This document shows, one piece after another, positions 4,615-22,246 of a stretch of DNA of 32,000 nucleotides. Numbering within the stretch: the stretch's first letter is position 1; every line of letters begins with the position of its first letter. A model generated the notes under the pieces. It ran no database searches and had not been told where the DNA came from. It worked only from the letters and a program-made list of their open reading frames with translations. The stretch comes from Ktedonobacterales bacterium. Lineage in GTDB: Bacteria; Chloroflexota; Ktedonobacteria; Ktedonobacterales; JADMIN01. The position numbers were made by a program, and so were the translations under genes. The stretch covers positions 3,240,001 to 3,272,000 of the forward strand of contig CP126532.1 in assembly GCA_030167145.1 (NCBI GenBank), given 5' to 3'.

Positions 4615-5010
4615 CTACACTGGACGGCGTGCATCATGCTCATCGAAGAGCCAACGATACGCCCAGCGTGGCACATGTAGGGCCTCCACGGCCCCAGGGA
4701 CTCGTACCGTTACGATGAACGTCGTACACACAAAACAGAACACCGACATAACTAGTGAAAATCTGAAGGCAAACCAGATCACGGAATCGTAAAGTAGGGT
4801 TTCCAATCCCAGCGTCCCGCAAGCTGTAAAGATAGCCATGAAAAGGAATCCAGCAGCCAATGCCGCATTTTGAATGCGCCAGGAGCGGCCCATGTCATGA
4901 GGCAGTTTGCCATTAAGCACATATATCATCAAAAAAGCGCCGATCATAGCAGCCAGACTCGCTAGTATTACAAACATACTCCCCATTATCCAAAAGAATG
5001 CGTTCCACAT
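4615..5010 (-). CDS. small integral membrane protein (about 4 TM), low GC
   Basis: 131 aa with 4 hydrophobic segments. AAGGGGG lies 7 nt upstream of ATG 5010. It ends 20 nt before the next minus-strand gene. Confidence 0.65.
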   Translation of the reverse strand: MWNAFFWIMGSMFVILASLAAMIGAFLMIYVLNGKLPHDMGRSWRIQNAALAAGFLFMAIFTACGTLGLETLLYDSVIWFAFRFSLVMSVFCFVCTTFIVTVRVPGAVEALHVPRWAYRWLFDEHDARRPV

Positions 5011-5014
5011 AATA

Positions 5015-5122
5015 CCCCCTTATAGCCGAGATTCGCGCCTCCGCCCCATAGCATTGCTGCCTTCCGCCGCCACTCCAGTGTCCCCTATTTAGCACGCGCT
5101 TGCAAGTCCTTCGCTAGCGATG
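5015..5122 (-). repeat. conserved non-coding element, copy A (leader/upstream element ending in the RBS)
   Basis: About 85% identical by hand alignment to 6789-6892. Minus-strand core: GGGGAsACTGGA..GGCGrCGGAAGsCAGCrATGCwATGG.GC.GAGGCGCGAATCTCGrCTATAAGGrGG. Confidence 0.7.
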
Positions 5123-5268
5123 CGCGATGCTTACAATTGATGAGCCGTATGGCGAAGAATCCCATCACCCCTATGCCGCAACCTCGGTTGTCTCTGTGAC
5201 GTTTCGCTTCCACGCCATCTCTGCCTCAGATCTCCAGTGGAGCGCAAATCCTGATAAACATCGGGTTA

Positions 5269-5922
5269 TCAGTGGCTGAGTGGTGTGAGCCGTATCTGCT
5301 TCGCAAGCCCGTAGGCGGTCGGCAGATCGCTGTCGCTCTCGACAAATACACGACCGATCACGAGCACCGACTTGTTCGGCGAAGTAATCTGCGCCATTCC
5401 CTGCGGCACGGTTCCTTTCCAGCTCGGTCCGCTGATGAGGTACTCGCCCGCCGCGGTTCCCGTGGTGCGTGTGCCGACATAGGCAAAATCAGTCCCGTCC
5501 GACGGATCAGTGAACTGCACGCTGTAGTAGCGGCCCGCCATCTCCGGCACATGCAACACCAGCGGCCCGTTGGCCAGGTCGAGCCAGCCGCCGACGTAGA
5601 GCAGGTCATCAACCCCGGTGGCTAATAAGCTGGCGTTTGACGCCCCAGCCGAAACGCGATTAGGCGTCGCGTACAGCGTATTGACGGGGATGGGGCCGCC
5701 AGGTCCATGCTGAAGGATCGCTCGTTTGTAGGCGCTGTACGCGAACGTTGGCCAAAGATAAAGGAACACGACCGTGCCGACTCCCCAGACGACGGCAGCC
5801 AGGACGACGAACCCAATAACCCCGCTTCCCCCCGCAGAGAAAATCCTGTAGACGACCCAGGCGAGGATGGCCAGGATGACGAACGTAATGGGATAGCCGT
5901 ACTTCAGAATCAACCGGTTCAT
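5269..5922 (-). CDS. DUF1254 domain protein with two N-terminal TM helices
   Basis: DUF1254-like core LLYVGGWLDLANGPLVLHVPEMAGRYYSVQFTD. SD-like GAGGTGAG precedes ATG 5922. The start lies 6 nt after the DUF1214 gene stop. Confidence 0.75.
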   Translation of the reverse strand: MNRLILKYGYPITFVILAILAWVVYRIFSAGGSGVIGFVVLAAVVWGVGTVVFLYLWPTFAYSAYKRAILQHGPGGPIPVNTLYATPNRVSAGASNASLLATGVDDLLYVGGWLDLANGPLVLHVPEMAGRYYSVQFTDPSDGTDFAYVGTRTTGTAAGEYLISGPSWKGTVPQGMAQITSPNKSVLVIGRVFVESDSDLPTAYGLAKQIRLTPLSH

Positions 5923-5928
5923 CTCACC

Positions 5929-6531
5929 TCACCGCACTCTCTTCACTGGTGGCACGTGATACGCGCCGTCGAGGACCGCACGGCCGGGCAGATACGCGCG
6001 GAGCATCAGCTTGAAGTTGCCTGACGGTGCAGGTAGCCAGTTCGACTCGTGGCCTGCGGGAGGTGTGCGCTGAATATAAATGTCAATGGAACCATCGGCG
6101 TTCGGCGCCAGGCCGGAGCGACTGCCGACGCTGTAGCGGGCGATGGGGTTCGGCGTCATATACCCCACAACATCGGTCATGGTCAGCGACCAAAAGGCCT
6201 CGTTCGGCGGGAGTTGTCCGGCAGGAAAATGCAATACGTACTCGTGCCGGCCGCTCAGCGCCCGCCCCGCGCTGTCCTCAGTCGCCGTCCAGTACGCTGC
6301 CTCTTGCACCACATTGACGGCAGGTAGGATTCTGGCGCATGCGGCCCGCACCAGAATGCCATTGCCAGGCTGGCCGGCTTTCACCGTGGTGCTCCAACCA
6401 TTGACGGTCGTGGTCATGGCTTTCACCACCGCGTTCATAATGACTTGTGCCGTGAGAAACGCCAGCACAGCGCCGACAATGATGCCTTGCGCGACGTGAG
6501 AGGCTGAGAGCAGTGTGAAGAAATTGCTCAT
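5929..6531 (-). CDS. DUF1214 domain protein with an N-terminal TM helix
   Basis: DUF1214-like motifs FWSLTMTD and NWLPAPSGNFKLMLRAYLP. N-terminal anchor IIVGAVLAFLTAQVIMNAVV. Confidence 0.75.
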   Translation of the reverse strand: MSNFFTLLSASHVAQGIIVGAVLAFLTAQVIMNAVVKAMTTTVNGWSTTVKAGQPGNGILVRAACARILPAVNVVQEAAYWTATEDSAGRALSGRHEYVLHFPAGQLPPNEAFWSLTMTDVVGYMTPNPIARYSVGSRSGLAPNADGSIDIYIQRTPPAGHESNWLPAPSGNFKLMLRAYLPGRAVLDGAYHVPPVKRVR

Positions 6532-6685
6532 ACCTTGGCCCTCGGCATGATCCGAGCGCGCAGCGCCACTGCTTGCGGTGTGCTATGCGCTCGCATGAGC
6601 TGTTGAAACAACGTACCTTCTTCAGCGGTCAAGTGAACTGGATGATTGGGCTTGGAACCACGCATTGGTTTCACCGCTCACTCTC

Positions 6686-6714
6686 AATCTATCCTGTGTC
6701 ATCCCTCCTGTCAA
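6686..6714 (-). promoter_or_regulatory. promoter candidate TTGACA-17 nt-TAGATT for the DUF1214/DUF1254 operon
   Basis: On the minus strand: TTGACA (6714-6709), a 17-nt spacer, TAGATT (6691-6686). It lies about 155 nt upstream of ATG 6531. Confidence 0.35.
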
Positions 6715-6788
6715 AGGCGGAACGGACGCATGATAGCCTCTACTCACTAGAATGTTCATAACCCCCAAAGAGACATTCTGCACCGGAG

Positions 6789-6892
6789 CCTCCTTATAGT
6801 CGAGATTCGCGCCTCAGCGCCATTGCATCGCTGGCTTCCGTCGCCCTTCCAGTCTCCCCCATTCGTCCAGCGCTGGCAAGCCTTTCGCGATG
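6789..6892 (-). repeat. conserved non-coding element, copy B
   Basis: Paralogue of 5015-5122 in the same orientation. It ends in AAGGAGG followed by GTG 6783, which opens only a dubious 53-codon frame. Confidence 0.7.
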
Positions 6893-6996
6893 ATATGATA
6901 CGTGGCCGCCACGCTACTCCACCTATCGAAAGCGAGAAAGCGGATGCGTAATGATACATCAGGCCGTTGGCCTCGCTTCGCGTTGGCGACATGCTC

Positions 6997-7068
6997 CCCC
7001 ATCCCCATCCCCATCCTCATCCCCATCCCCATCCTCATCCCCATCCCCGTGCCCATACCCGACCCCAT
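6997..7068. repeat. hexanucleotide microsatellite (CCCCAT)n, 12 units, with an 18-nt super-period CCCCATCCCCATCCTCAT
   Basis: Read directly from the sequence: CCCCAT x3, CCTCAT, CCCCAT x2, CCTCAT, CCCCAT, CCCCGT, GCCCAT, ACCCGA, CCCCAT. Confidence 0.9.
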
Positions 7069-7116
7069 CTGACCACACCTGTCCCCAACTGACCGCCCAC
7101 CTCCGCGCCTCCCACA

Positions 7117-7125
7117 TGCTACACT
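7117..7125 (+). promoter_or_regulatory. extended -10-like element TGCTACACT heading repeat island 1
   Basis: It sits within the 12-mer CATGCTACACTA, which is identical at the head of the second island (18954-18965, minus strand). I see no convincing -35. Confidence 0.3.
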
Positions 7126-7712
7126 ATCCATCTGGCTGCTTATCTCACTCTCTCAAGGACGCGCACATGCTATTGAGAAATCGGCCATGTCGGCCATTGC
7201 ATACATCGGCCACATCGGCCACTGGTGGGGCAGACATTCCTGTCTGCCAGCACGTCATATCGGCAACTTCGGCAACTGTTATCCCGGCAAATCGCAAAAT
7301 CGGCAGAATCGGCAACTGTTACAATTCCAAATCGCGGCGAAAACGGCGAAAAATCTCCCGTCACCTTTGGCCATTCGCCCCCACCCAGCCACAAAACCGG
7401 CCATTTCGGCCACTGTGGCAACCTACACAATCCAAAAATCGGCAGAATCGGCAACTCCGGCGATTGGCATTTTCGCGAAATTGCGGCGAAAACGGCGAAA
7501 ATTGTCCAGCCATTTCCCGTCATTTCCCGTCACCTCTCCCACCCTCGCGCGCAAATCGGCAAAATCGGCAACTCGCATATCGGCCACCACCTGTCGACCT
7601 GGATTACCCGTGGCCTTCAGGCCGAGAACTCGCTTTACCATCCTCCCGCCCTCCACGCGCAAATCGGCAGAATCGGCAACTCAAGTGGGCGGACATTCCT
7701 GTCTGCCTATGC

Positions 7713-7800
7713 GGCCACATCGGCCACATCGGCCACATCGGCCACATCGGCCACATCGGCCACATCGGCCACATCGGCCACATCGGCCACATCGGCCACC
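7713..7800. repeat. tandem repeat (GGCCACATC) x9 perfect copies plus a partial copy
   Basis: Nine perfect 9-bp units span 7713-7793, followed by GGCCACC. This repeat explains the GHIGHIG / RPHRPH / ATSATS peptides in the ORF track. Confidence 0.95.
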
Positions 7801-7905
7801 ATCGCCTATCCAGGATTACCCGTGGGTCTTCAGCCCACGTCCTCGCCTTACGGCCCGGCGCGTCCATCCTGGCATTCATGCCCCGCGCCTGTGCTCCGGC
7901 CATGT

Positions 7906-7941
7906 ATGGCCGAGACCATGGCCGAGAGCATGGCCGAGAGC
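7906..7941. repeat. tandem 12-mer ATGGCCGAGAGC x3, abutting the palindrome CGGCCAT-GT-ATGGCCG
   Basis: ATGGCCGAGACC, ATGGCCGAGAGC, ATGGCCGAGAGC. The palindrome lies at 7897-7912. Confidence 0.9.
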
Positions 7942-8064
7942 GCCCGCCACAGCGCGAGTGATATACTCGAATACTGGCTCTTTATTGCCGCCGCCACCAC
8001 CAGCACGACTACATTCAGTAGTAGAGCGCCGCGCGCCAACACATCATCCACGGAGGAGGAAGAT

Positions 8065-9291
8065 ATGCCGCACCGCCCACATGAAGGCCCTGCCCGCGAC
8101 CAAAGCGACAGCCAAAGCGACAGCCAAAGCGACAGCCAAACCGAGACTGACGCCTCAGGCGCCAACGGCGACTACCTCAGCGGCGAGCGCATCGTGCCCC
8201 GCCATATTGCGCCAGACATCACCGTCGCCGACCTGCTCGATGGCTCCTTCCAGGCCTACAATGCCGGCCGCATCAACGAAGCTGCGCGGCTCTATGCTCA
8301 GCAAATGCTCGACCCCGAACAAGACGTCACCATCTGCCTCACCATCGCCGGCGCGATGACCCCGGCAGGCGTCGGCGGCAGCATCATCACCCTCATGGAG
8401 CGCGGCGCGATAGACTTCATGGTCAGCACCGGTGCCAACCTCTACCACGACATCCACCACGCGCTCGATTACGCCCTGCGGCGCGGCACCTTCCAACTCA
8501 GCGATACCGTCCTGCACGATGCCGGCGTCATCCGCATCTACGACGTGCTCTTCGCCGACGCCGTGCTGCTCGATACCGACCGTTTCCTGCGCGAGATATT
8601 CAAGACCTTCCCGCAGCGGCCCATGTCCACCGCCGAACTGCATTATCACATCGGCATGAGCCTGCTCGAACTTGGTGTAGACCCCGAACACTCCGTGCTG
8701 GCCATGGCCGCCAAATGGAACGTTCCCATCTACACCTCCTCCCCTGGCGACTCCTCCATCGGCATGAACCTCGCGCGACATCAACTCGATGGCTACGCCC
8801 TCACCATAGATCCGCTCTACGACGTGCATGAAACCACCGCCATCGTCCATGCCGCCACGCGCAACGGCGTCATCATCCTTGGCGGCGGCTCCCCCAAAAA
8901 CTTCTACCTGCAAACCCAGCCGCAACTCTGGGAGGTGCTCGGCATCAACAAAGGTGGCCACGACTACTTCATCCAGATCACCCAAGATGCCCCCCACTGG
9001 GGCGGCCTCTCCGGCGCGACTCCCTCCGAAGCCGTCTCCTGGGGCAAGATCAAGCCCGACATGCTGCGCGACACCGTCGTCGTCTACGCCGACACCACCA
9101 TCGCCTTCCCGCTGATCGCCGCCTACGCCGTCACCCGCGCCGCCCCGCGTCCGCGCCGCGAACTCTATACCCGCCGCGACGACCTGCTCGCCGCGCTGCG
9201 CGAAGGCTATCGCCAGGGCGCGGGCAGCATCGCCGCCACCGCCCAAATCGAAGAAACCGCCGAAAACGTCGCCATAGACCGCGACCGTTGA
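8065..9291 (+). CDS. deoxyhypusine synthase-like (DHS / homospermidine synthase family) protein
   Basis: C-terminal 408 aa of ORF 7225..9291. ATG 8065 follows GGAGGAGGAAG. DHS-like blocks: ICLTIAGAMTPAGVGG, DFMVSTGANLYHD, ILGGGSPKNF, WGGLSGATPSEAVSWGK. The N-terminus carries (SDSQ)x3 from a 12-nt tandem repeat at 8101-8136. Confidence 0.8.
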   Translation: MPHRPHEGPARDQSDSQSDSQSDSQTETDASGANGDYLSGERIVPRHIAPDITVADLLDGSFQAYNAGRINEAARLYAQQMLDPEQDVTICLTIAGAMTPAGVGGSIITLMERGAIDFMVSTGANLYHDIHHALDYALRRGTFQLSDTVLHDAGVIRIYDVLFADAVLLDTDRFLREIFKTFPQRPMSTAELHYHIGMSLLELGVDPEHSVLAMAAKWNVPIYTSSPGDSSIGMNLARHQLDGYALTIDPLYDVHETTAIVHAATRNGVIILGGGSPKNFYLQTQPQLWEVLGINKGGHDYFIQITQDAPHWGGLSGATPSEAVSWGKIKPDMLRDTVVVYADTTIAFPLIAAYAVTRAAPRPRRELYTRRDDLLAALREGYRQGAGSIAATAQIEETAENVAIDRDR

Positions 9292-10795: not shown

Positions 10796-10807
10796 GTCTA
10801 CCGTGCG

Positions 10808-10888
10808 CGCCCATCCTGGCATTCATGCTTGGCTCCTGTGTTCTGGCCATTCATGGCTGAGAGCACAGACATGGCCGAGAGCACAGAC
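10808..10888. repeat. M5-type palindromic repeat block (third locus) with tandem 18-mer ATGGCyGAGAGCACAGAC x2
   Basis: CCATCCTGGCATTCATGC...CCTGTGTTCTGGCCAT-TC-ATGGCTGAGAGC aligns at about 80% with 7862-7917. The 18-mers lie at 10853-10870 and 10871-10888. Confidence 0.8.
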
Positions 10889-11280
10889 AAATGGGCATGC
10901 GTTCTCGCTATTTCTTGACAGGTGTGTTAATGTAGCCACGATGATGTTTACGCGGTTCGCTTCAATAAGCGCGCCTCGTGGCAGCGCCATTCTGTGGCGG
11001 CGGCACAAGTCCAGCCTGAGAATCGGCTGCGGAATGGCATCGCGACAACCCACAATGGTGTGGCATCTCTTCTCTCCAATTGTTGGAGCCGGGGCCAGAG
11101 CCGCGCAATGAAGCGCCGCCGGAAGAGCCTGTGACAGCACAACTTGCGGCGCGCAATCATACGTGGATATCTATTCCCCCGGACGCGCAACCCAGTGGCG
11201 GATGATGTGTGGTTGGTAGGTGCTGGCATGAGTTGGCACGAGCGTATGGCTCTGATGTTGGATACAGGGAGTGTGATACG

Positions 11281-12232: not shown

Positions 12233-14173
12233 ATGTTTCCTAGATGGCGGCGTCTGGGCATTCGCCCACAGCTAACATTCATCGTGATCCTGGGAGCGAT
12301 CTTGAGCACTGTCGCTACCCTTTTCATCGCTGATAACGCAATTCAGAACTATGTGCTGGACCAGGCTCGAACCCAGGAACAGCAAAACATGAATATCATG
12401 CGGCTGGTATTGGAAACGCAGTACGGGCCGAATATCTCCATCGCCCATGACAACACCATGGTGGTTGACCAACCGAGCACCAGCCAGGGCACGTTTAGCT
12501 GCAATCCTAATGCCGCGCCGTCCACCCCCTGTTATGGGCGCTACGTACTCAACAACGATACCGACCTTGTTGACAACGTCCAGAATCTGATCGGCGGCAA
12601 CGTCTCGATCTTCCAATGCGCCAACGCCACCGGCAGCACCACCGGCTGCCTGCGCATTGCCACCACCTTTGGCAAAGGCAACTCCTCAGCAGGCACGTCC
12701 ACGCGCGCAACCGGTCAGCAATTGTGCCAGAGCGTCGCGCGCAATATGAACCTGGATGGCACACCGCGTGCCTGGCTTGGCACTGATACCTGCGATGGCG
12801 CGGCCTATTTCGCGAACTATGCCCCGCTCTTCAACCCCCAGGGCCAGTTTATCGGCGTGCTCTATGTCGGTGTTCCGCTCGACGTCATCACCACCGTCGT
12901 CAGCCGCACGACCATCGAACTGGTGGTCATCGGCTCGATCATCATGATCGCCGGAATCATCTTCGCGCTCTTCTTTGCTAACACCATCGTTGGCACACTC
13001 CAACGCGCCGCGCGACAAATCAGCGGCGCCTCCGAGCGCATGGGCGGCATCGCCGCACAGCAATCCAGTGGCGCGGCGCAGCAGGTCTGGGCCATCAACG
13101 CCATCAATCAGGCGCTCCAGAACTTCTCAGAGACCGCCAAAGATATCTCACATCGCACCGACCAGCTTGCGTTGATGGGCAATCAAGTCTTGCAGCGCCG
13201 CGCCGAGATCTCGCCCGCGCAGATAGACTCGATCCTCGCCTACATCACCCGTTCCGTGCGCGACATCAGCGTCGCCAGCAAGCAACAGTCAGTGCAGTAT
13301 GAGCGTATGACTGGGGCCATGCAGGCGGTCATCGAGATCGCCGAGCAGGTCGCGGGCAACTCGCAGCAAGCCTCTGAAAGCTCAGAGCGGCTGGAGTTGG
13401 TCGTCCGGCAGATGCGGCAGTTGGTGGGTGTGCGCCTGGGTGCGCGCAAGACCACCGAAGATGCCATGGCGATGGAACTGGCGGCAGAGATTGGCGCGCG
13501 GGCTGGTATCGGCGCCAACAGCCAGAACGACATGCGCGATGGCAAGCGTGCCCGCAGCCCCTTGCGCCGCAATGCTTCTGGCCCGGCAACGGGTGGCAAC
13601 GGTATGGGCAATCCCATGGGCGGCCCCGGTCAGATGATGTTCCCCGATGCGAGCGGCGTCGTCAACATGGGCGCCATGGGCGGTATGGGCAACATGAACA
13701 GCGCCGGGAATATGGGCGGCATGGGCAACATGGGTGGTATGGGTATGATGCCGCCGATGTCCGGCCCAATGCGAGACGCCGGTGGCCAGCGGCAAGACCG
13801 TGGCCTTATGCCCGCTCCGGTCGGCAATGGGTACGCTGGCGGCGGTGGCATGCCGAATATGCAGCCACCTAATAGCGGTCGTTTTGCCCCGCGTCCCGGC
13901 GGCGCGAATGGCATGCGCCCCGCGCCGAACGGCGGTGGCATGGGCAACTATGGGTATCAGCCCGGCGCGGCGCCTGGTGAGAACCCCTTCGCTGGCGGCG
14001 AAGATTGGCGATTGCCGCCATTGCCTCAGATGCCGCAATGGGGCGATAACAATGGACGCATGGGCGGTCCAAGCCAGGGATCGCGCGGCGGATGGGACCG
14101 CGATGGGCGCTCGTATGGCGGGCAAGATGCGTCGTATGATGGCGAGGGCTGGCCGCGCCTCCGAGGCGAATAG
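12233..14173 (+). CDS. transmembrane Cache-type sensor with a short, degenerate MCP-like coiled coil and a Gly/Met/Pro/Asn-rich tail of about 200 aa
   Basis: TM1 LTFIVILGAILSTVATLFI. Periplasmic sCache-like block VLNNDTDLVDNVQNLIGGNVSIFQ...YFANYAPLFNPQGQFIGVLYVGVP. TM2 IELVVIGSIIMIAGIIFALFF. MCP-like heptads follow (AAQQSSGAAQQV..., SKQQSVQYERMTGAMQAVIEIAEQVAGNSQQASESSERL), but the conserved tip EAARAGE-GRGFAVVA is absent. The tail (13580-14170) reads GGMGNMNSAGNMGGMGNMGGMGMMPPM. Confidence 0.7.
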   Translation: MFPRWRRLGIRPQLTFIVILGAILSTVATLFIADNAIQNYVLDQARTQEQQNMNIMRLVLETQYGPNISIAHDNTMVVDQPSTSQGTFSCNPNAAPSTPCYGRYVLNNDTDLVDNVQNLIGGNVSIFQCANATGSTTGCLRIATTFGKGNSSAGTSTRATGQQLCQSVARNMNLDGTPRAWLGTDTCDGAAYFANYAPLFNPQGQFIGVLYVGVPLDVITTVVSRTTIELVVIGSIIMIAGIIFALFFANTIVGTLQRAARQISGASERMGGIAAQQSSGAAQQVWAINAINQALQNFSETAKDISHRTDQLALMGNQVLQRRAEISPAQIDSILAYITRSVRDISVASKQQSVQYERMTGAMQAVIEIAEQVAGNSQQASESSERLELVVRQMRQLVGVRLGARKTTEDAMAMELAAEIGARAGIGANSQNDMRDGKRARSPLRRNASGPATGGNGMGNPMGGPGQMMFPDASGVVNMGAMGGMGNMNSAGNMGGMGNMGGMGMMPPMSGPMRDAGGQRQDRGLMPAPVGNGYAGGGGMPNMQPPNSGRFAPRPGGANGMRPAPNGGGMGNYGYQPGAAPGENPFAGGEDWRLPPLPQMPQWGDNNGRMGGPSQGSRGGWDRDGRSYGGQDASYDGEGWPRLRGE

Positions 14174-16482: not shown

Positions 16483-18177
16483 TTATTGGCCGAGCATGGG
16501 AATGTTGACGCCGCGCTCGCGGGCGCAGGCGATGGCTTCGTCGTAGCCAGCGTCTACGTGGCGCATGACGCCAGTGCCGGGGTCGTTGGTGAGCACGCGC
16601 TGGAGCTTCGCGGCGGCTTCGTCGGTGCCGTCGGCGACGGTGACGACGCCCGCGTGCAGCGAGTAGCCGATGCCCACGCCGCCGCCATGATGGAACGAGA
16701 CCCACGAAGCGCCGCTGGCGGTGTTGAGCAGCGCGTTGAGGATCGGCCAGTCGCCGATGGCATCGGAGCCGTCGCGCATGCTTTCGGTCTCGCGGTAGGG
16801 CGAGGCGACGGAGCCGGAGTCGAGGTGGTCGCGGCCAATGACGATGGGCGCTTTGACCTCGCCGCGCCGCACCAGTTCGTTGAAGGCGACGCCCGCTTTG
16901 TCGCGCTCGCCGTAGCCCAGCCAGCAGATGCGCGCGGGCAGCCCCTGGAAGTGGATGCGCTCCTGGGCCATACGCATCCAGCGGGCGAGCGATTCGTCTT
17001 CGGGGAAGAGGCGCAAGATCTCTTCGTCGGTGCGGCGGATGTCGGCGGGGTCGCCAGAGAGCGCGACCCAGCGGAAGGGGCCTTTGCCGCGACAGAAGAG
17101 CGGACGTACGAAGGCGGGGACGAAGCCGGGGAAGTGCATGGCGTCTTCGACGCCGACGCGCAGCGCCTGGCCGCGGAGGTTGTTGCCGTAGTCGAAGACC
17201 ACCGCGCCCATTTCGTCGAAGTCGAGCATGGCGCGGACGTGGTCGGCCATGGACGCGAGGGAGCGGCGTTCGTACTCCTGCGGGTCGGTGCGGCGCAGTT
17301 CGGCGGCGGCATCTAGTGAGAGGCCGGCGGGGACGTAGCCGTTGAGGGCATCGTGTGCGGCGGTCTGGTCGGTGACAAGCTGGACATTGACGCCACGGCG
17401 CACCATCTCTGGCAGGATTTCGGCGGCGTTGCCGAGCAGGCCGATGCTCTTGGCGACGCCCTGCTGGCGGTAGTCGTCGGCGCGGCGCAGGGCTTCATCG
17501 AGGTCCGTGACCATTTCATCGAGGTAGCCGGTATCCAGACGGCGCTGGATGCGGGTGGGGTCCACTTCGATGGCGAGGCAGACGCCTTCGTTCATGGTGA
17601 CGGCGAGGGGCTGCGCGCCGCCCATGCCGCCGAGGCCAGCGGTGACGGTGAGCGTGTGCTTGAGGGTGCCGCCGTAGTGCTGGCGCGCGGCTTCGGCGAA
17701 GGTTTCGTAGGTGCCCTGGACGATGCCCTGCGAGCCGATGTAGATCCAGGAGCCTGCGGTCATCTGGCCGTACATGGTCAGCCCTTCGGCTTCGAGGCGG
17801 CGGAATTCGTCCCAGTTGGCCCAATGTGGCACGAGGTTGGAGTTGGCGATGAGCACGCGCGGCGCGCCGGGGTGGGTGCGGAAGATGCCGACTGGCTTGC
17901 CGGATTGCACGAGCAGTGTTTCGTCGTTTTCGAGCGAGCGGAGTGAGCGCACGATGGCGTCGAAGCATTCCCAGTTGCGCGCGGCTTTGCCGGAGCCGCC
18001 GTAGACGACGAGATCATCGGGGCGCTCGGCGACTTCGGGGTCGAGGTTGTTCATCAGCATGCGGAGCGCGGCTTCTTGCTGCCAGCCTTTGCATGAGATG
18101 TCGGTTCCACGCGGCGCGCGGACGGGGCGGGGTCCGCTGGTGGGGGTTGTGCTGGTATTGTCGTCGGTCTGCGTCAT
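16483..18177 (-). CDS. hutU: urocanate hydratase
   Basis: 564 aa with near-canonical HutU blocks: [112 protein letters not shown] 18177 follows GAGGAGA. Confidence 0.95.
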
Positions 18178-18189
18178 CGCGGTGTCTCC

Positions 18190-18905
18190 TCTACGATGGG
18201 GTGGGCTGGGATGGCGGCCATGAATGGGTCGCGGCCATGAATGGCCGGCGCACGGTGGCGAGGGGCTGAAGCCCAGGGATGTGTCGAGTGTTCGCCTTCG
18301 CACGATAGCATGGGAAGCGCGGGTGGGGCAAGGCAGTTGCCGATTTTGCCGATATTGCCGATATTGCGCGGTGGGCATGATGTGGCGGTAAGGGAAGCTC
18401 TCGGCCATGATTGGCGGGAGCACAGCAGGATGGGCATGAATGCCTGGAGTGGCCGAAATGGCCGATTTTGTGGCGAAGGTGAGGGGATGTGGCCGGAGAT
18501 GACTGGATATGGCCGGAGATTTTTCGCCGTTTTCGCCGCAATTGCGTATGCTCCCGGCCATAAATGGCCGGAGCACAGACGATATGGTATACATGCCAGA
18601 ATGAGCGTAGTGGGCGATGTTGCCAGAGTTGCCGATTCTGCCGAATTTCTGGATCGGGTACGGAGGGTGAGCGTGGGTGGTGTAGGAAGCTCCCAGCCTG
18701 AAGGCCGCGGCTAATCTCAATGGCAGGGTTGTGGCCGAAATGACCGTTTTGCGCGTGTGCGTAGTTGCCGATTCTGCCGATCTTGTGATGGGCGGGTGAT
18801 AGCAGTGGCCGAAATGGCCGATTTTCGCATGCTTTCGCAGGAGGGCAGACAAGAATGTCTGCTCCACACGTGGTGGCAGATATGAGTGGCCGATGTGGCC
18901 GATTT
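18190..18905 (-). repeat. repeat island 2: the same motif set as island 1, oriented toward hutU
   Basis: Plus-strand coordinates of reverse-complement motifs. M1 at 18336-18362 (3 units), 18628-18646 and 18764-18781. M2 at 18449-18466, 18731-18748, 18805-18822 and 18886-18903. M3 at 18520-18539. M4 hairpin at 18845-18862. M5-type palindromes at about 18205-18250, 18395-18450 and 18550-18580. Confidence 0.85.
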
Positions 18906-18956
18906 TTCATTTTTGCGCACTCCTTTGGCGTTCGGTGGCGTGGGGCTTATCGAGGT

Positions 18957-18965
18957 AGTGTAGCA
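18957..18965 (-). promoter_or_regulatory. extended -10-like element TGCTACACT heading repeat island 2
   Basis: The reverse complement of 18957-18965 is TGCTACACT, identical to 7117-7125. The surrounding ~125-nt header (18886-19012) aligns with 7078-7200. Confidence 0.3.
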
Positions 18966-19025
18966 TGCGAGGGTGGAGGGCGAGCGGACAATGCCGGTCA
19001 GGGGTGGACAGGAGATGACGGCGCG

Positions 19026-22030: not shown

Positions 22031-22246
22031 CTACACTATGGGGTGCGGCAACGGCTCGTTGTGCTTACGAGCTGAAGCGATCAGGGCTTCCAGAGCTTTG
22101 CGTCCGCGCTGGATGGCCTGTTCGCAGGTGTTACTGCGGCTCACTGGCCCAAGCACGCGCTTGGCCCATTCTGGAAGGGTGACAAGATAGGTGTGGTCTT
22201 CATCGGACCATTGGATCAACATTGAGTAGTGTGGAGTGTCGCTCAT
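22031..22246 (-). CDS. HicB-like (UPF0150 / RNase H-like fold) small protein
   Basis: YSMLIQWSDEDHTYLVTLPEW...AIQRGRKALEALIASARKHNEPLPHP follows the short HicB-family pattern. The usual PGC.THG.T.EEA segment is replaced by GPVSRSNTCEQA. The ATG overlaps the upstream stop (ATGA). Confidence 0.6.
   Translation of the reverse strand: MSDTPHYSMLIQWSDEDHTYLVTLPEWAKRVLGPVSRSNTCEQAIQRGRKALEALIASARKHNEPLPHPIV

Follow-up and report, generated by a model that had tools for sequence, protein, structure and literature searches.

A dispersed modular repeat family of Ktedonobacterales, oriented with its flanking genes and poor in sense-strand stop codons

Several kinds of short repeats that are scattered through bacterial genomes have been described. 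The BOX elements of Streptococcus pneumoniae are modular dispersed repeats with a tandemly variable middle module and a predicted RNA fold, and they often lie upstream of genes. Mycobacterial interspersed repetitive units (MIRUs) are reportedly intergenic and oriented like the genes that flank them, and they are said to contain open reading frames (ORFs) whose ends abut or overlap the start of the neighbouring gene, which suggests translational coupling and avoidance of polarity. Rickettsia palindromic elements (RPEs), on the other hand, are said to sit in frame in protein genes without destroying them. Here, we describe a repeat mosaic that occupies about 850 bases (approximately 7089-7950, + strand) upstream of a deoxyhypusine-synthase-like (DHS) gene, in a stretch of 32,000 nucleotides (nt) from contig CP126532.1 of a Ktedonobacterales bacterium (GCA_030167145.1). 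This whole stretch, at its full length, is called the window below. The Ktedonobacteria are large-genome, mycelial, sporulating, Streptomyces-like Chloroflexota, and we know of almost no work on their non-coding DNA. An earlier note, made by a model from the letters of the window, had found the mosaic unlike any repeat family that it could name. We see that it does resemble interspersed mosaic or modular repeats, namely the repetitive extragenic palindromic sequences (REPs) and the bacterial interspersed mosaic elements (BIMEs) that contain them, as well as BOX, MIRU and RPE.

The islands, as we call the stretches built from these motifs, are a real, dispersed, modular repeat family of Ktedonobacterales and of some other soil Chloroflexota. 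The doublet TCGGC-N4-TCGGC (TCGGCNNNNTCGGC) has 23 matches in the window, compared with 0.29 +/- 0.52 expected from dinucleotide shuffles. Island 1 (+ strand) has fifteen of them, at 7181-7796, and island 2, which precedes hutU on the - strand, has seven, at 18339-18902; the remaining one is an unrelated match at 17431 inside hutU. All the matches within islands share the strand of the gene downstream. The longer motif ATCGGCAGAATCGGCAAC has three exact copies and one copy with a single mismatch in island 1, and one exact copy and two with one mismatch in island 2. Similarly, GCGGCGAAAACGGCGAAAA is found in two exact copies in island 1 and in one copy in island 2, and island 1 contains three doublets of the ATCGGCCAYNTCGGCCAC type (ATCGGCCAY-type) plus a tandem array at 7712-7804. 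For each of these counted motifs the chance expectation is close to zero. In total, 10-mers that are found repeatedly among the islands account for about 63% of island 1. Beyond the two islands, the window contains just one related piece, a solitary module of the tail type (Table 1), and the motif is absent from an additional 8 kb taken from the right end of the native contig.

These counts confirm much of what the earlier note had claimed. CGGC doublets with a 9-nt period do tile the region, the two copies of GCGGCGAAAACGGCGAAAA are there, and the region upstream of hutU is indeed made of the same motifs in the same orientation relative to its gene, as the seven matches on the - strand show. 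The conserved hairpins and palindromes that had been noticed correspond to GGCAGACATTCCTGTCTGCC at 7229 and 7688, GGCATTCATGCC at 7871 and GCTCCGGCCATGTATGGCCGAGAC at 7893. Some of the claims had to be adjusted. Of five copies proposed for ATCGGCAGAATCGGCAAC, four have at most one mismatch, and a fifth is obtained only if a looser variant at 7259 is counted; the three ATCGGCCAYNTCGGCCAC-type doublets stand, but the array that accompanies them has 10.2 copies according to Tandem Repeats Finder (TRF) and not nine. While the mosaic itself is real, it does not make up the whole upstream region of about 1 kb: it ends near 7950, and positions 7959-8064 are the gene's own promoter-like element and 5' untranslated region (UTR), which are also kept in relatives that lack an island. 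The ribosome-binding site (RBS) GGAGGAGG, which had been placed at 8053, is present with the coordinates 8052-8059, and the start codon is at 8065. Finally, it had been stated that the region holds no credible coding sequence (CDS). This is true in the sense that we find no coding signature, no Pfam match and no homologue; yet the three sense frames are all open, and one of them holds an ORF of 264 codons (7167-7961).

We found related islands in a number of other assemblies. Among Ktedonobacterales, the closest DHS relative with DNA compared (L140, 86% identity) has an island upstream of its DHS gene, and a soil contig of only 762 nt (L142) carries a full miniature island, again upstream of a gene. 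In the Ktedonobacterales metagenome-assembled genome (MAG) SMAG_U9705, three 30-nt units directly follow a phage terminase gene (L004), and in the same MAG and in soil contigs (L081, L086, L087) two copies are situated in frame within the linker of SucA. Other islands come from MAGs that are labelled 'Chloroflexia' in their records. These islands are located upstream of an ABC-transporter gene (L012), upstream of a membrane-protein gene and above a promoter-like TTGACG-N17-TACACT (L068), on the 3' side of recA, about 30 nt ahead of the following start codon (L036), and behind a head composed of TGCTACACT, a Shine-Dalgarno (SD) sequence and GTG (L017). A scan of genome contigs with an 18-mer returned at least 84 entries, most of which are isolated matches due to chance or to coding sequence, for example IGRIGN-encoding HEAT or NHL repeats, and a metagenome scan with a 20-mer returned 3 matches.

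The orientation of the islands is strict. In each of the ten islands examined, the motif is found in sense with the co-directional gene next to it, and in BLAST comparisons among island 1, island 2 and L142 all 81 inter-island high-scoring segment pairs (HSPs) are same-strand. A lack of orientation bias toward the genes, which the earlier note had named, together with random scatter and missing transcription, as the outcome that would speak against its description, was not seen in these islands. Its statement that the motifs precede genes holds for islands 1 and 2; in the relatives, on the other hand, they are also found 3' of genes and in frame inside CDS. The latter situation is best seen in SucA (2-oxoglutarate dehydrogenase E1) of L081 (5446-5740), the N-terminal linker of which contains two in-frame doublets (AEKSAESAT...FPAESAT) that encode KSAESAT and PAESAT; the ORF is intact and has its E1_dh, Transket_pyr and N-terminal domains. 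The copy number in this linker varies: there are two copies in L081, one (KSAETAT) in the 75%-identical homologue P0125 and none in more distant homologues. P0125 carries its own SVPSV repeats beside the single copy. A repeat in frame within an intact gene, as described for RPEs, is thus found in the relative L081; the window has no copy inside a CDS.

A Ktedonobacterales island is a cassette of co-oriented parts, with a head at the 5' end, a body made of units, and a hairpin tail at or near the 3' end. Island 1, island 2, L142 and, in a variant form, L140 open with CTGNCC, followed by 25-45 C-rich nt, CATGCTAC(A/G)CTA, a further 25-45 nt, an SD-like AGGA(G/C) and a start codon. In the whole window, both strands included, there are just eight occurrences of the pattern TGNTAYRHT, six of which are intergenic; among the intergenic sites are both island heads, position 7317 inside island 1 and the native site of DHS. 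Since the pattern is rare in the window and mostly intergenic, we consider the head a credible promoter, although its activity is so far a prediction. In all four Ktedonobacterales islands that are situated upstream of a gene, the start codon of the head opens an ORF that spans the island (264, 239, 211 and 192 codons). This ORF ends 13 nt before the ATG of hutU in island 2 and 7 nt before the GTG of DHS in L140, and it overlaps the start of the next gene in L142.

Each unit of the body consists of an A-rich tract with a doublet of 9-nt period (consensus AAAAT-CGGCA-GAAT-CGGCA-AC) and a payload; the latter can be one of the REP-like GC-rich hairpins H1-H3 or a C-rich spacer that is unique. A matrix built from 57 sites gives the consensus sSnAAAAT-CGGCA-(G/A)AAT-CGGCA-AC-T, that is, an A/T-rich stretch at -4 to -1, an invariant CGGC and then A or C, repeated with a period of 9 nt; the flanks are conserved and the spacers are unique. 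The halves of a doublet co-vary (CCAC/CCAC, CAAC/CAAC, CCAT/CCAT, GAAA/GAAA), and arrays of 3-10 copies occur. The GC-rich imperfect palindromes H1-H3 are interleaved with the doublets, as in REP/BIME mosaics, and on the sense strand their variants contain about five G.T wobbles and one A.C. The tail module, in which GGCATTCATGCC is followed by GCTCCGGCCAT-NN-ATGGCCGAGAGC, is found at or near the 3' end of island 1, island 2 and L142. Modules are common to unlinked loci and to different organisms, and in some cases their order is kept as well. For example, the composite order of a single unit or b-type doublet, H2, spacer and doublet is seen in island 2 and twice in L142. The best shared composite block, which consists of a CGGCC-type doublet, the H2 hairpin, a C-rich spacer and a CGGCA-type doublet, extends over 153 nt at 79% identity between island 2 and L142.

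Together with this promoter/SD/ATG head, the depletion of stop codons in all frames of the sense strand is the most unusual property of the islands; neither of the two had been noticed in the earlier note. All three sense frames of island 1 are nearly free of stops, with one stop compared with 11.4 +/- 2.6 expected, while the antisense strand has 23 (30.4 expected). In island 2 we count 5 sense stops where 13.7 +/- 2.9 are expected, and 25 antisense stops (28.3 expected). Since repeats alone could fake such a depletion, we masked the recurring 10-mers. In the remaining, non-repeated parts of four islands there are 6 sense stops against an expectation of 23.7 and 38 antisense stops against 39.8, that is, the depletion persists and is about 4-fold. 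The other intergenic DNA of the window has 88 stops on the + strand (100.6 expected) and 101 on the - strand (101.9 expected). In CDS the corresponding numbers are 251 in sense (367 expected) and 453 in antisense (417.6 expected), so the depletion is stronger in the islands than in the genes. L142 replicates the effect, with 3 sense and 12 antisense stops. To our knowledge, there is no explanation for a depletion restricted to the sense strand besides selection linked to translation, and the effect would be hard to explain if ribosomes did not read the region.

Next, we compared the orthologous DHS loci of relatives, as the earlier note had proposed. The DHS homologues are 76-87% identical, and all are labelled as Ktedonobacterales. 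A mosaic is present at two of the six loci (the window and L140) and absent from the other four (L089, L090, L141 and L151). Where it is present, only the head and the native promoter region are common to both islands, and the bodies are wholly different. An extended -10-like GTGATATACT is situated about 55-125 nt upstream of the DHS start in L089, L090, L140, L141 and the window, while L151 carries the variant GATACACT in place of TGATATACT; the mosaic sits upstream of this native promoter-like element. As the island lies upstream of the conserved promoter-like site of the gene and is missing from most of the orthologous loci, DHS, to judge from these six loci, does not need the island for its expression and can dispense with it. 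The island thus behaves as accessory, fast-turnover DNA. We found no motif-encoded peptides in the N-terminal extensions of the DHS homologues, and no high-scoring doublet in 63 kb from three relatives.

In the window, island 1 has a divergent DUF1214/DUF1254 gene pair on one side and the DHS gene, followed by an XdhC-family gene, on the other; island 2 is situated between a GT87 glycosyltransferase gene and hutU, all on the - strand. The synteny with the relatives breaks exactly at island 1 (5269-8065 of the window compared with 6142-10001 of L089/L090). The gene order in L089 and L090 is alaS, a conserved ORF of 223-227 amino acids (aa) without assigned function, and DHS, where the window has the divergent DUF1254/DUF1214 pair instead, and L141 and L151 have still other neighbours at this locus.

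The explanation that we favour, with a probability of roughly 0.45 and therefore only tentatively, is that each island is a copy of a lineage-restricted dispersed mosaic repeat, similar in kind to REP/BIME, BOX, MIRU and RPE, which would survive only in a form that is compatible with read-through. The cassettes would grow by slippage of 9-mers, and modules would also be shuffled or copied between loci (the shared blocks reach about 150 nt at about 80% identity). Transcription in sense would start from the island head, ribosomes would translate the cassette passively, the peptide being without a function, and selection would keep only those copies that are in sense orientation and have no stops in any sense frame. 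Copies retained in this way would cause no polarity, that is, no premature termination or loss of coupling, on the flanking genes, which would explain why they are found in 5' leaders, between genes and in frame in a coding linker. In the opposite orientation an island has about 27-31 stop triplets per kb (counted as reverse complements), and the antisense GGCC-type doublets look like terminators made of a hairpin and a T-run; selection against polarity would thus yield the orientation lock.

The base composition of the islands is of interest in this respect, because their sense strand is C-rich and G-poor (36-38% C, 21-23% G). Untranslated RNA of such a C-rich, G-poor composition is favoured by Rho in E. 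coli, so that translation would be protective. As for the 9-nt doublet core, it is probably a protein recognition site. Its conservation across taxa, while the spacers drift, suggests a reader that acts in trans; candidates would be the spreading machinery or a protein of the host, binding in head-to-tail fashion to direct repeats of 9 bp.

Several points weigh against the read-through repeat. Both the transcription from the head and the translation of the ORF are deduced from the DNA sequence, and no transposase, target-site duplication or terminal repeat was found with the islands. The conservation of the doublet and of H2 from Ktedonobacterales to a 'Chloroflexia' MAG would be just as compatible with a host function as with selfish DNA, if not more so. 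The ORF of island 1 ends inside the native -10, about 100 nt before the start of the gene, and since DHS has its own promoter, a translated leader would not be needed for its expression. Furthermore, the 'Chloroflexia' islands L012 and L068 show no stop depletion, which means that this property does not define the whole family. Finally, the sample is made up of about 40 kb of native genome and ten islands, and as the islands have modules in common, the statistics are not fully independent.

If the favoured explanation is confirmed, it would show how dispersed repeats can be selected as polarity-neutral, and it would provide a handle on transcription-translation coupling and on Rho-type termination in Chloroflexota. 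The conserved 9-nt doublet is a ready bait for its binding protein, for example in the form of AAAATCGGCAGAATCGGCAACT or of the 10x ATCGGCCAC array. Such a binding factor could possibly be BldC/Xis-like, and it could then tie these bacteria to the developmental regulation of the Streptomyces type. The family would be of higher interest still if a translation-dependent shielding or a dedicated doublet-binding protein turned out to be true. Both are elements of a bolder proposal, which we regard as unlikely: the islands could represent a novel class of modular repeats that bear a promoter and an RBS, are open in all three frames and are read as peptide-agnostic leaders. Translation itself would then be selected; it would shield the C-rich, G-poor transcript from Rho-type termination or decay and couple the distal promoter to the downstream gene, and a dedicated protein, assembling into head-to-tail oligomers, would occupy the conserved doublets.

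Potentially, the doublets could also be operators of a small protein of the BldC/Xis winged-helix type that oligomerises head to tail, and the islands would be upstream regulatory or architectural arrays that load filaments of variable length next to promoters. We find this doubtful. The half-site of BldC, AATTXXXX(C), has a 9-bp period and a variable repeat number, for example in AATTCGGTC and GATTTCCCC (PMC5859096), and the unit AAAT-CGGC-M or GAAT-CGGC-M fits this half-site pattern, which is a likeness of pattern only. The core is kept across taxa while the spacers drift, and in five cases the islands are found just upstream of promoter-like sites. The mycelial, sporulating and Streptomyces-like habit of the Ktedonobacteria would suit such a regulator as well. 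The spacing of the sites shows a weak helical phasing (p about 0.03 at 10.5 bp, uncorrected), but this is not significant once many periods are scanned. On the other hand, some sites fall within a CDS, on the 3' side of genes or about 30 nt ahead of a start codon, the downstream genes have no common functional theme, and, as described above, four of the six orthologous loci have no island. Pfam scans of the window showed no BldC-like gene. Operators would also leave unexplained the stop depletion, the SD/ATG head, the co-oriented hairpin modules and the strict sense orientation.

Less probable still is that an island is a functional RNA, either a long structured leader or a separate non-coding RNA, in which the AAAAUCGGCAGAAUCGGCAAC repeats bind or titrate an RNA-binding protein or mark processing sites while the hairpins stabilise the molecule. 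It is true that every copy is on the sense strand of a region that is expected to be transcribed (5' leader, CDS or 3' UTR), that the promoter-like head is at the 5' side and the hairpins at the 3' side, and that the wobbles of the hairpin variants are G.U on the sense strand. The sense strand has a fold with z = -3.9; however, the antisense strand folds nearly as well (z = -2.9), and covariation is almost nil, with one compensatory pair in H2. The order and content of the modules vary at every locus. In a search of Rfam 15, the window had no match at the gathering score or at E <= 1, and six related loci had no match at the gathering score. Besides, a functional RNA does not predict the loss of stops.

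Could the island ORFs be real genes, whose products would be disordered, rich in repeats and fast-evolving? In each of the four gene-upstream islands of Ktedonobacterales, an ORF across the island does begin at a start codon that is preceded by a promoter-like site and an SD, and gene callers list hypothetical proteins here (7167-7961 and 18191-18910, OJF49_003118, in the window; 292-927 in L140; 110-688 in L142). Nevertheless, we consider this very improbable. The GC content by codon position is flat in the island ORFs (about 0.6/0.57/0.58; 0.61/0.58/0.59 in island 1) compared with about 0.65/0.48/0.78 in genes, hence they have no signature in GC content at third positions (GC3) or in codons, and they match no Pfam family. 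A comparison of the island 2 ORF with 5.8 billion proteins found only the ORF itself, and in an exhaustive search of 1.84 billion representative proteins the only homologues were two ORFs derived from other islands. For island 2 and L142, a nucleotide identity of 79% translates into 46% amino-acid identity, which is the neutral expectation. The mismatches are distributed evenly across the codon positions (7/12/10), and three frameshifting indels of 1 nt occur in 150 nt. One and the same DNA motif is read as IGRIGN, SAESAT or NRQNRQ, i.e. in three frames, at different places, and all the frames are open, not just that of the ORF. Because of the flat codon GC, the lack of homologues, the even substitutions, the indels and the reading of the motif in different frames, we take the conserved unit to be the nucleic acid and not a peptide. 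The consequences for annotation are considerable: the family generates spurious database proteins, lengthens called N-termini (the native DHS is called as 461 aa, with an N-terminus extended into the island) and swells intergenic regions to about 1 kb.

Finally, a degenerate CRISPR array, a remnant of an insertion sequence (IS) or of a miniature inverted-repeat transposable element (MITE), or an artefact of assembly or chance can practically be dismissed: although a CRISPR-like pattern of conserved repeats (about 25 nt) separated by unique spacers (about 30 nt) is seen in the simplest islands (L012, L140, L004), the islands have degenerate repeats of several types each, with an irregular start-to-start spacing (25-141 nt). 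Neither cas genes nor a transposase, terminal inverted repeats or duplications are present, and the family recurs in independent assemblies from different samples with a chance expectation of about 0. The earlier note had already set the region apart from CRISPR, IS and MITE, and rightly so. In particular, Pfam scans of 28 ORFs of the window showed neither a Cas nor a transposase domain, and the ends of an island are a head block and a tail hairpin which are not inverted copies of each other, so that terminal inverted repeats are lacking. No match for the islands was found in Rfam, Pfam or the phage and plasmid collections, and no description of them, or of other repeats of Ktedonobacteria, in the searched literature; motif scans of IMG/VR and BLAST against phages and plasmids gave chance single matches or none.

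Table 1. Components of the two islands and neighbouring features in the window
Feature	Position	Strand	Remarks
(CCCCAT)n microsatellite, about 12 units	6997..7069	+	TRF period 6, 12.2 copies; directly 5' of island 1
Island 1 head: CTGACCGCC boundary block, then extended -10-like TGCTACACT at 7117-7125	7089..7125	+	same block opens island 2, L142, and L140 as TGCTACGCT
Head SD-like AAGGA (7155-7159) and ATG (7167)	7155..7169	+	homologous: AAAGGAG...ATG in island 2; GGAAAGGA...ATG in L140; AGGAG...GTG in L142
Island-spanning ORF, 264 codons, without coding signature	7167..7961	+	stop map; TGA stop falls within native TGATATACT element
Doublets ATCGGCCATGTCGGCCAT, ATCGGCCACATCGGCCAC	7180..7222	+	
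Hairpin H1 GGCAGAC-ATTCCT-GTCTGCC (GGCAGACATTCCTGTCTGCC)	7229..7248	+	further copies at 7688-7707 and 18859 (-)
Doublets ATCGGCAACTTCGGCAAC and ATCGGCAGAATCGGCAAC (7299-7316), then internal extended -10-like TGTTACAAT (7317-7325)	7259..7325	+	
Module f: GCGGCGAAAACGGCGAAAA and tail ATCTCCCGTCACC	7334..7367	+	
Doublets CCGGCCATTTCGGCCAC (7396), ATCGGCAGAATCGGCAAC (7438)	7396..7455	+	
Second module f and CATTTCCCGT x2.2	7483..7535	+	
Composite unit: doublet ATCGGCAAAATCGGCAAC, single ATCGGCCAC, REP-like hairpin H2 (GGATTACCCGTGGCCTTCAGGCCGAGAAC, 7601-7640), C-rich spacer, doublet ATCGGCAGAATCGGCAAC (7663)	7555..7680	+	
Hairpin H1' GGCGGACATTCCTGTCTGCC	7688..7707	+	second H1 copy; G.T wobble on sense strand
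Tandem array of 9-mer ATCGGCCAC, about 10 copies	7710..7804	+	TRF 10.2 copies, 98% matches (7712-7804)
Second H2 copy GGATTACCCGTGGGTCTTCAGCCCACGTCC	7813..7850	+	one compensatory pair change compared with other copies
3' tail module: palindrome GGCATTCATGCC, REP-like hairpin H3 (GCTCCGGCCATGTATGGCCGAGAC, 7893-7916), ATGGCCGAGAGC x3	7871..7941	+	
Native promoter-like TGATATACT of the DHS gene, outside mosaic	7959..7967	+	conserved in relatives with or without island
RBS GGAGGAGG; DHS gene	8052..8059; 8065..9291	+	Pfam PF01916, E = 1.5e-77
Solitary tail-type module GGCATTCATGC...GGCCATTCATGGCTGAGAGC, then CATGGCCGAGAGCACAGA x2	10805..10890	+	downstream of 96-codon ORF; two G.T wobbles on + strand
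hutU, urocanate hydratase, downstream of island 2	16483..18177	-	Pfam Urocanase N, central and C domains
Island 2, upstream of hutU	18178..19001	-	head CTGACCGGC (19001-18993), TGCTACACT (18965-18957), AAAGGAG (18926-18920), ATG (18910)
Island 2 ORF, 239 aa	18910..18191	-	annotated hypothetical protein OJF49_003118; stop 13 nt before hutU start codon
Island 2 content: seven 9-nt repeat sites (eight overlapping pattern matches), H1, H2, two H3 copies, module f		-	

The coordinates of the components are collected in Table 1. The (CCCCAT)12 microsatellite that precedes island 1 may belong to the repeat family. A block akin to (CCCCAT)n, CCCCATCTG.CC.CACCTG (CCCCATCTGCCCCACCTG), is found at the 5' edge of the L068 island. 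Tandem repeats are also found in frame within real genes: CCAAAGCGACAG x3.8 (8100-8144) encodes (SQSD)n at the N-terminus of DHS, and a Cache-domain gene (13666-13743) carries 9/18-nt repeats (CATGGGCAACATGGGCGG). Slippage in multiples of three seems to be generally frequent in this genome.

Other features were seen in the course of the analysis. An element of about 105 nt occurs in two copies with about 80% identity (5020-5130 and 6785-6895, read on the - strand), both of which end in TATAAGG(A/G)GG. One copy is situated directly upstream of a small ORF at 4615..5010 (-) and the other about 250 nt upstream of the DUF1214 gene at 5929..6531 (-). We regard the element as a candidate leader with a cis-regulatory role; Rfam gives no match to it, and its two copies yield no covariation. 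A 63-aa ORF at 22031-22222 (-), beside an ORF of 155-157 aa without a family, has a weak match to HicB-like antitoxins (E = 0.005, below the Pfam cut-off). In L036, about 400 nt without an ORF (360-780, -) separate the island downstream of recA from the next gene; they are GC-poor compared with their surroundings and rich in stem-like sequence, and have no Rfam match. We also considered a replication origin or terminus, as the GC skew changes its sign near 12-15 kb. However, the skew follows gene orientation across the window, the coding strands being C-rich (37-40% C compared with 24-31% G), and the sign change thus marks a switch of gene direction and does not point to a replication origin or terminus. 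In consensus or spacing, there is no fit to DnaA boxes, IHF sites, integron attC sites or iterons.

How do the islands compare with the described systems? Like BIME/REP, they are extragenic mosaics of a few short motifs including GC-rich imperfect palindromes (here H1-H3); they lie in intergenic DNA that is transcribed, or in our case expected to be, and their copy number and composition vary by locus. In contrast to BIMEs and REPINs, in which the REPs alternate in orientation, all the modules of the islands are co-oriented, and none of the 81 HSPs is on the opposite strand; moreover, 9-nt direct doublets and a promoter/SD/ATG head are both lacking in REP/BIME, for which no stop depletion is reported either. 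With MIRUs the islands share the orientation in gene sense and, in island 2, L140 and L142, the ORFs that abut or overlap the next start. However, MIRUs are simple tandem arrays of one unit of 46-101 bp inside operons, whereas island 1 is a mosaic with a promoter-like head in a divergent intergenic region, and here all three frames are open and copies also occur in CDS. BOX elements, by description, have a fixed order of boxA-boxB(n)-boxC, no strict sense orientation and no ORF-like property, and we would not expect them to be similar to the islands in sequence. The two doublets in the SucA linker of the related MAG are similar to RPEs in their position; RPEs, on the other hand, are palindromic units of 100-150 bp, while the copies inside CDS described here are short direct doublets in a disordered linker. 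The BldC operators of Streptomyces (PMC5859096) are similar to the doublets: both are 9-bp direct repeats with an AT-rich tetramer, four bases and a C, in variable number, and those of BldC are bound head to tail. For example, AATTCGGTC can be compared with AAATCGGCC or GAATCGGCA in the islands, binding being an analogy in the latter case. Still, the BldC sites are single operators at the promoters of a regulon and not kilobase mosaics with hairpins, and they are not situated in CDS or 3' regions. In summary, what sets the islands apart from BIME/REP, BOX, MIRU and RPE is the combination of co-oriented modules, a core of 9-nt direct doublets, a promoter/SD/ATG head and a sense strand that is open in all frames.

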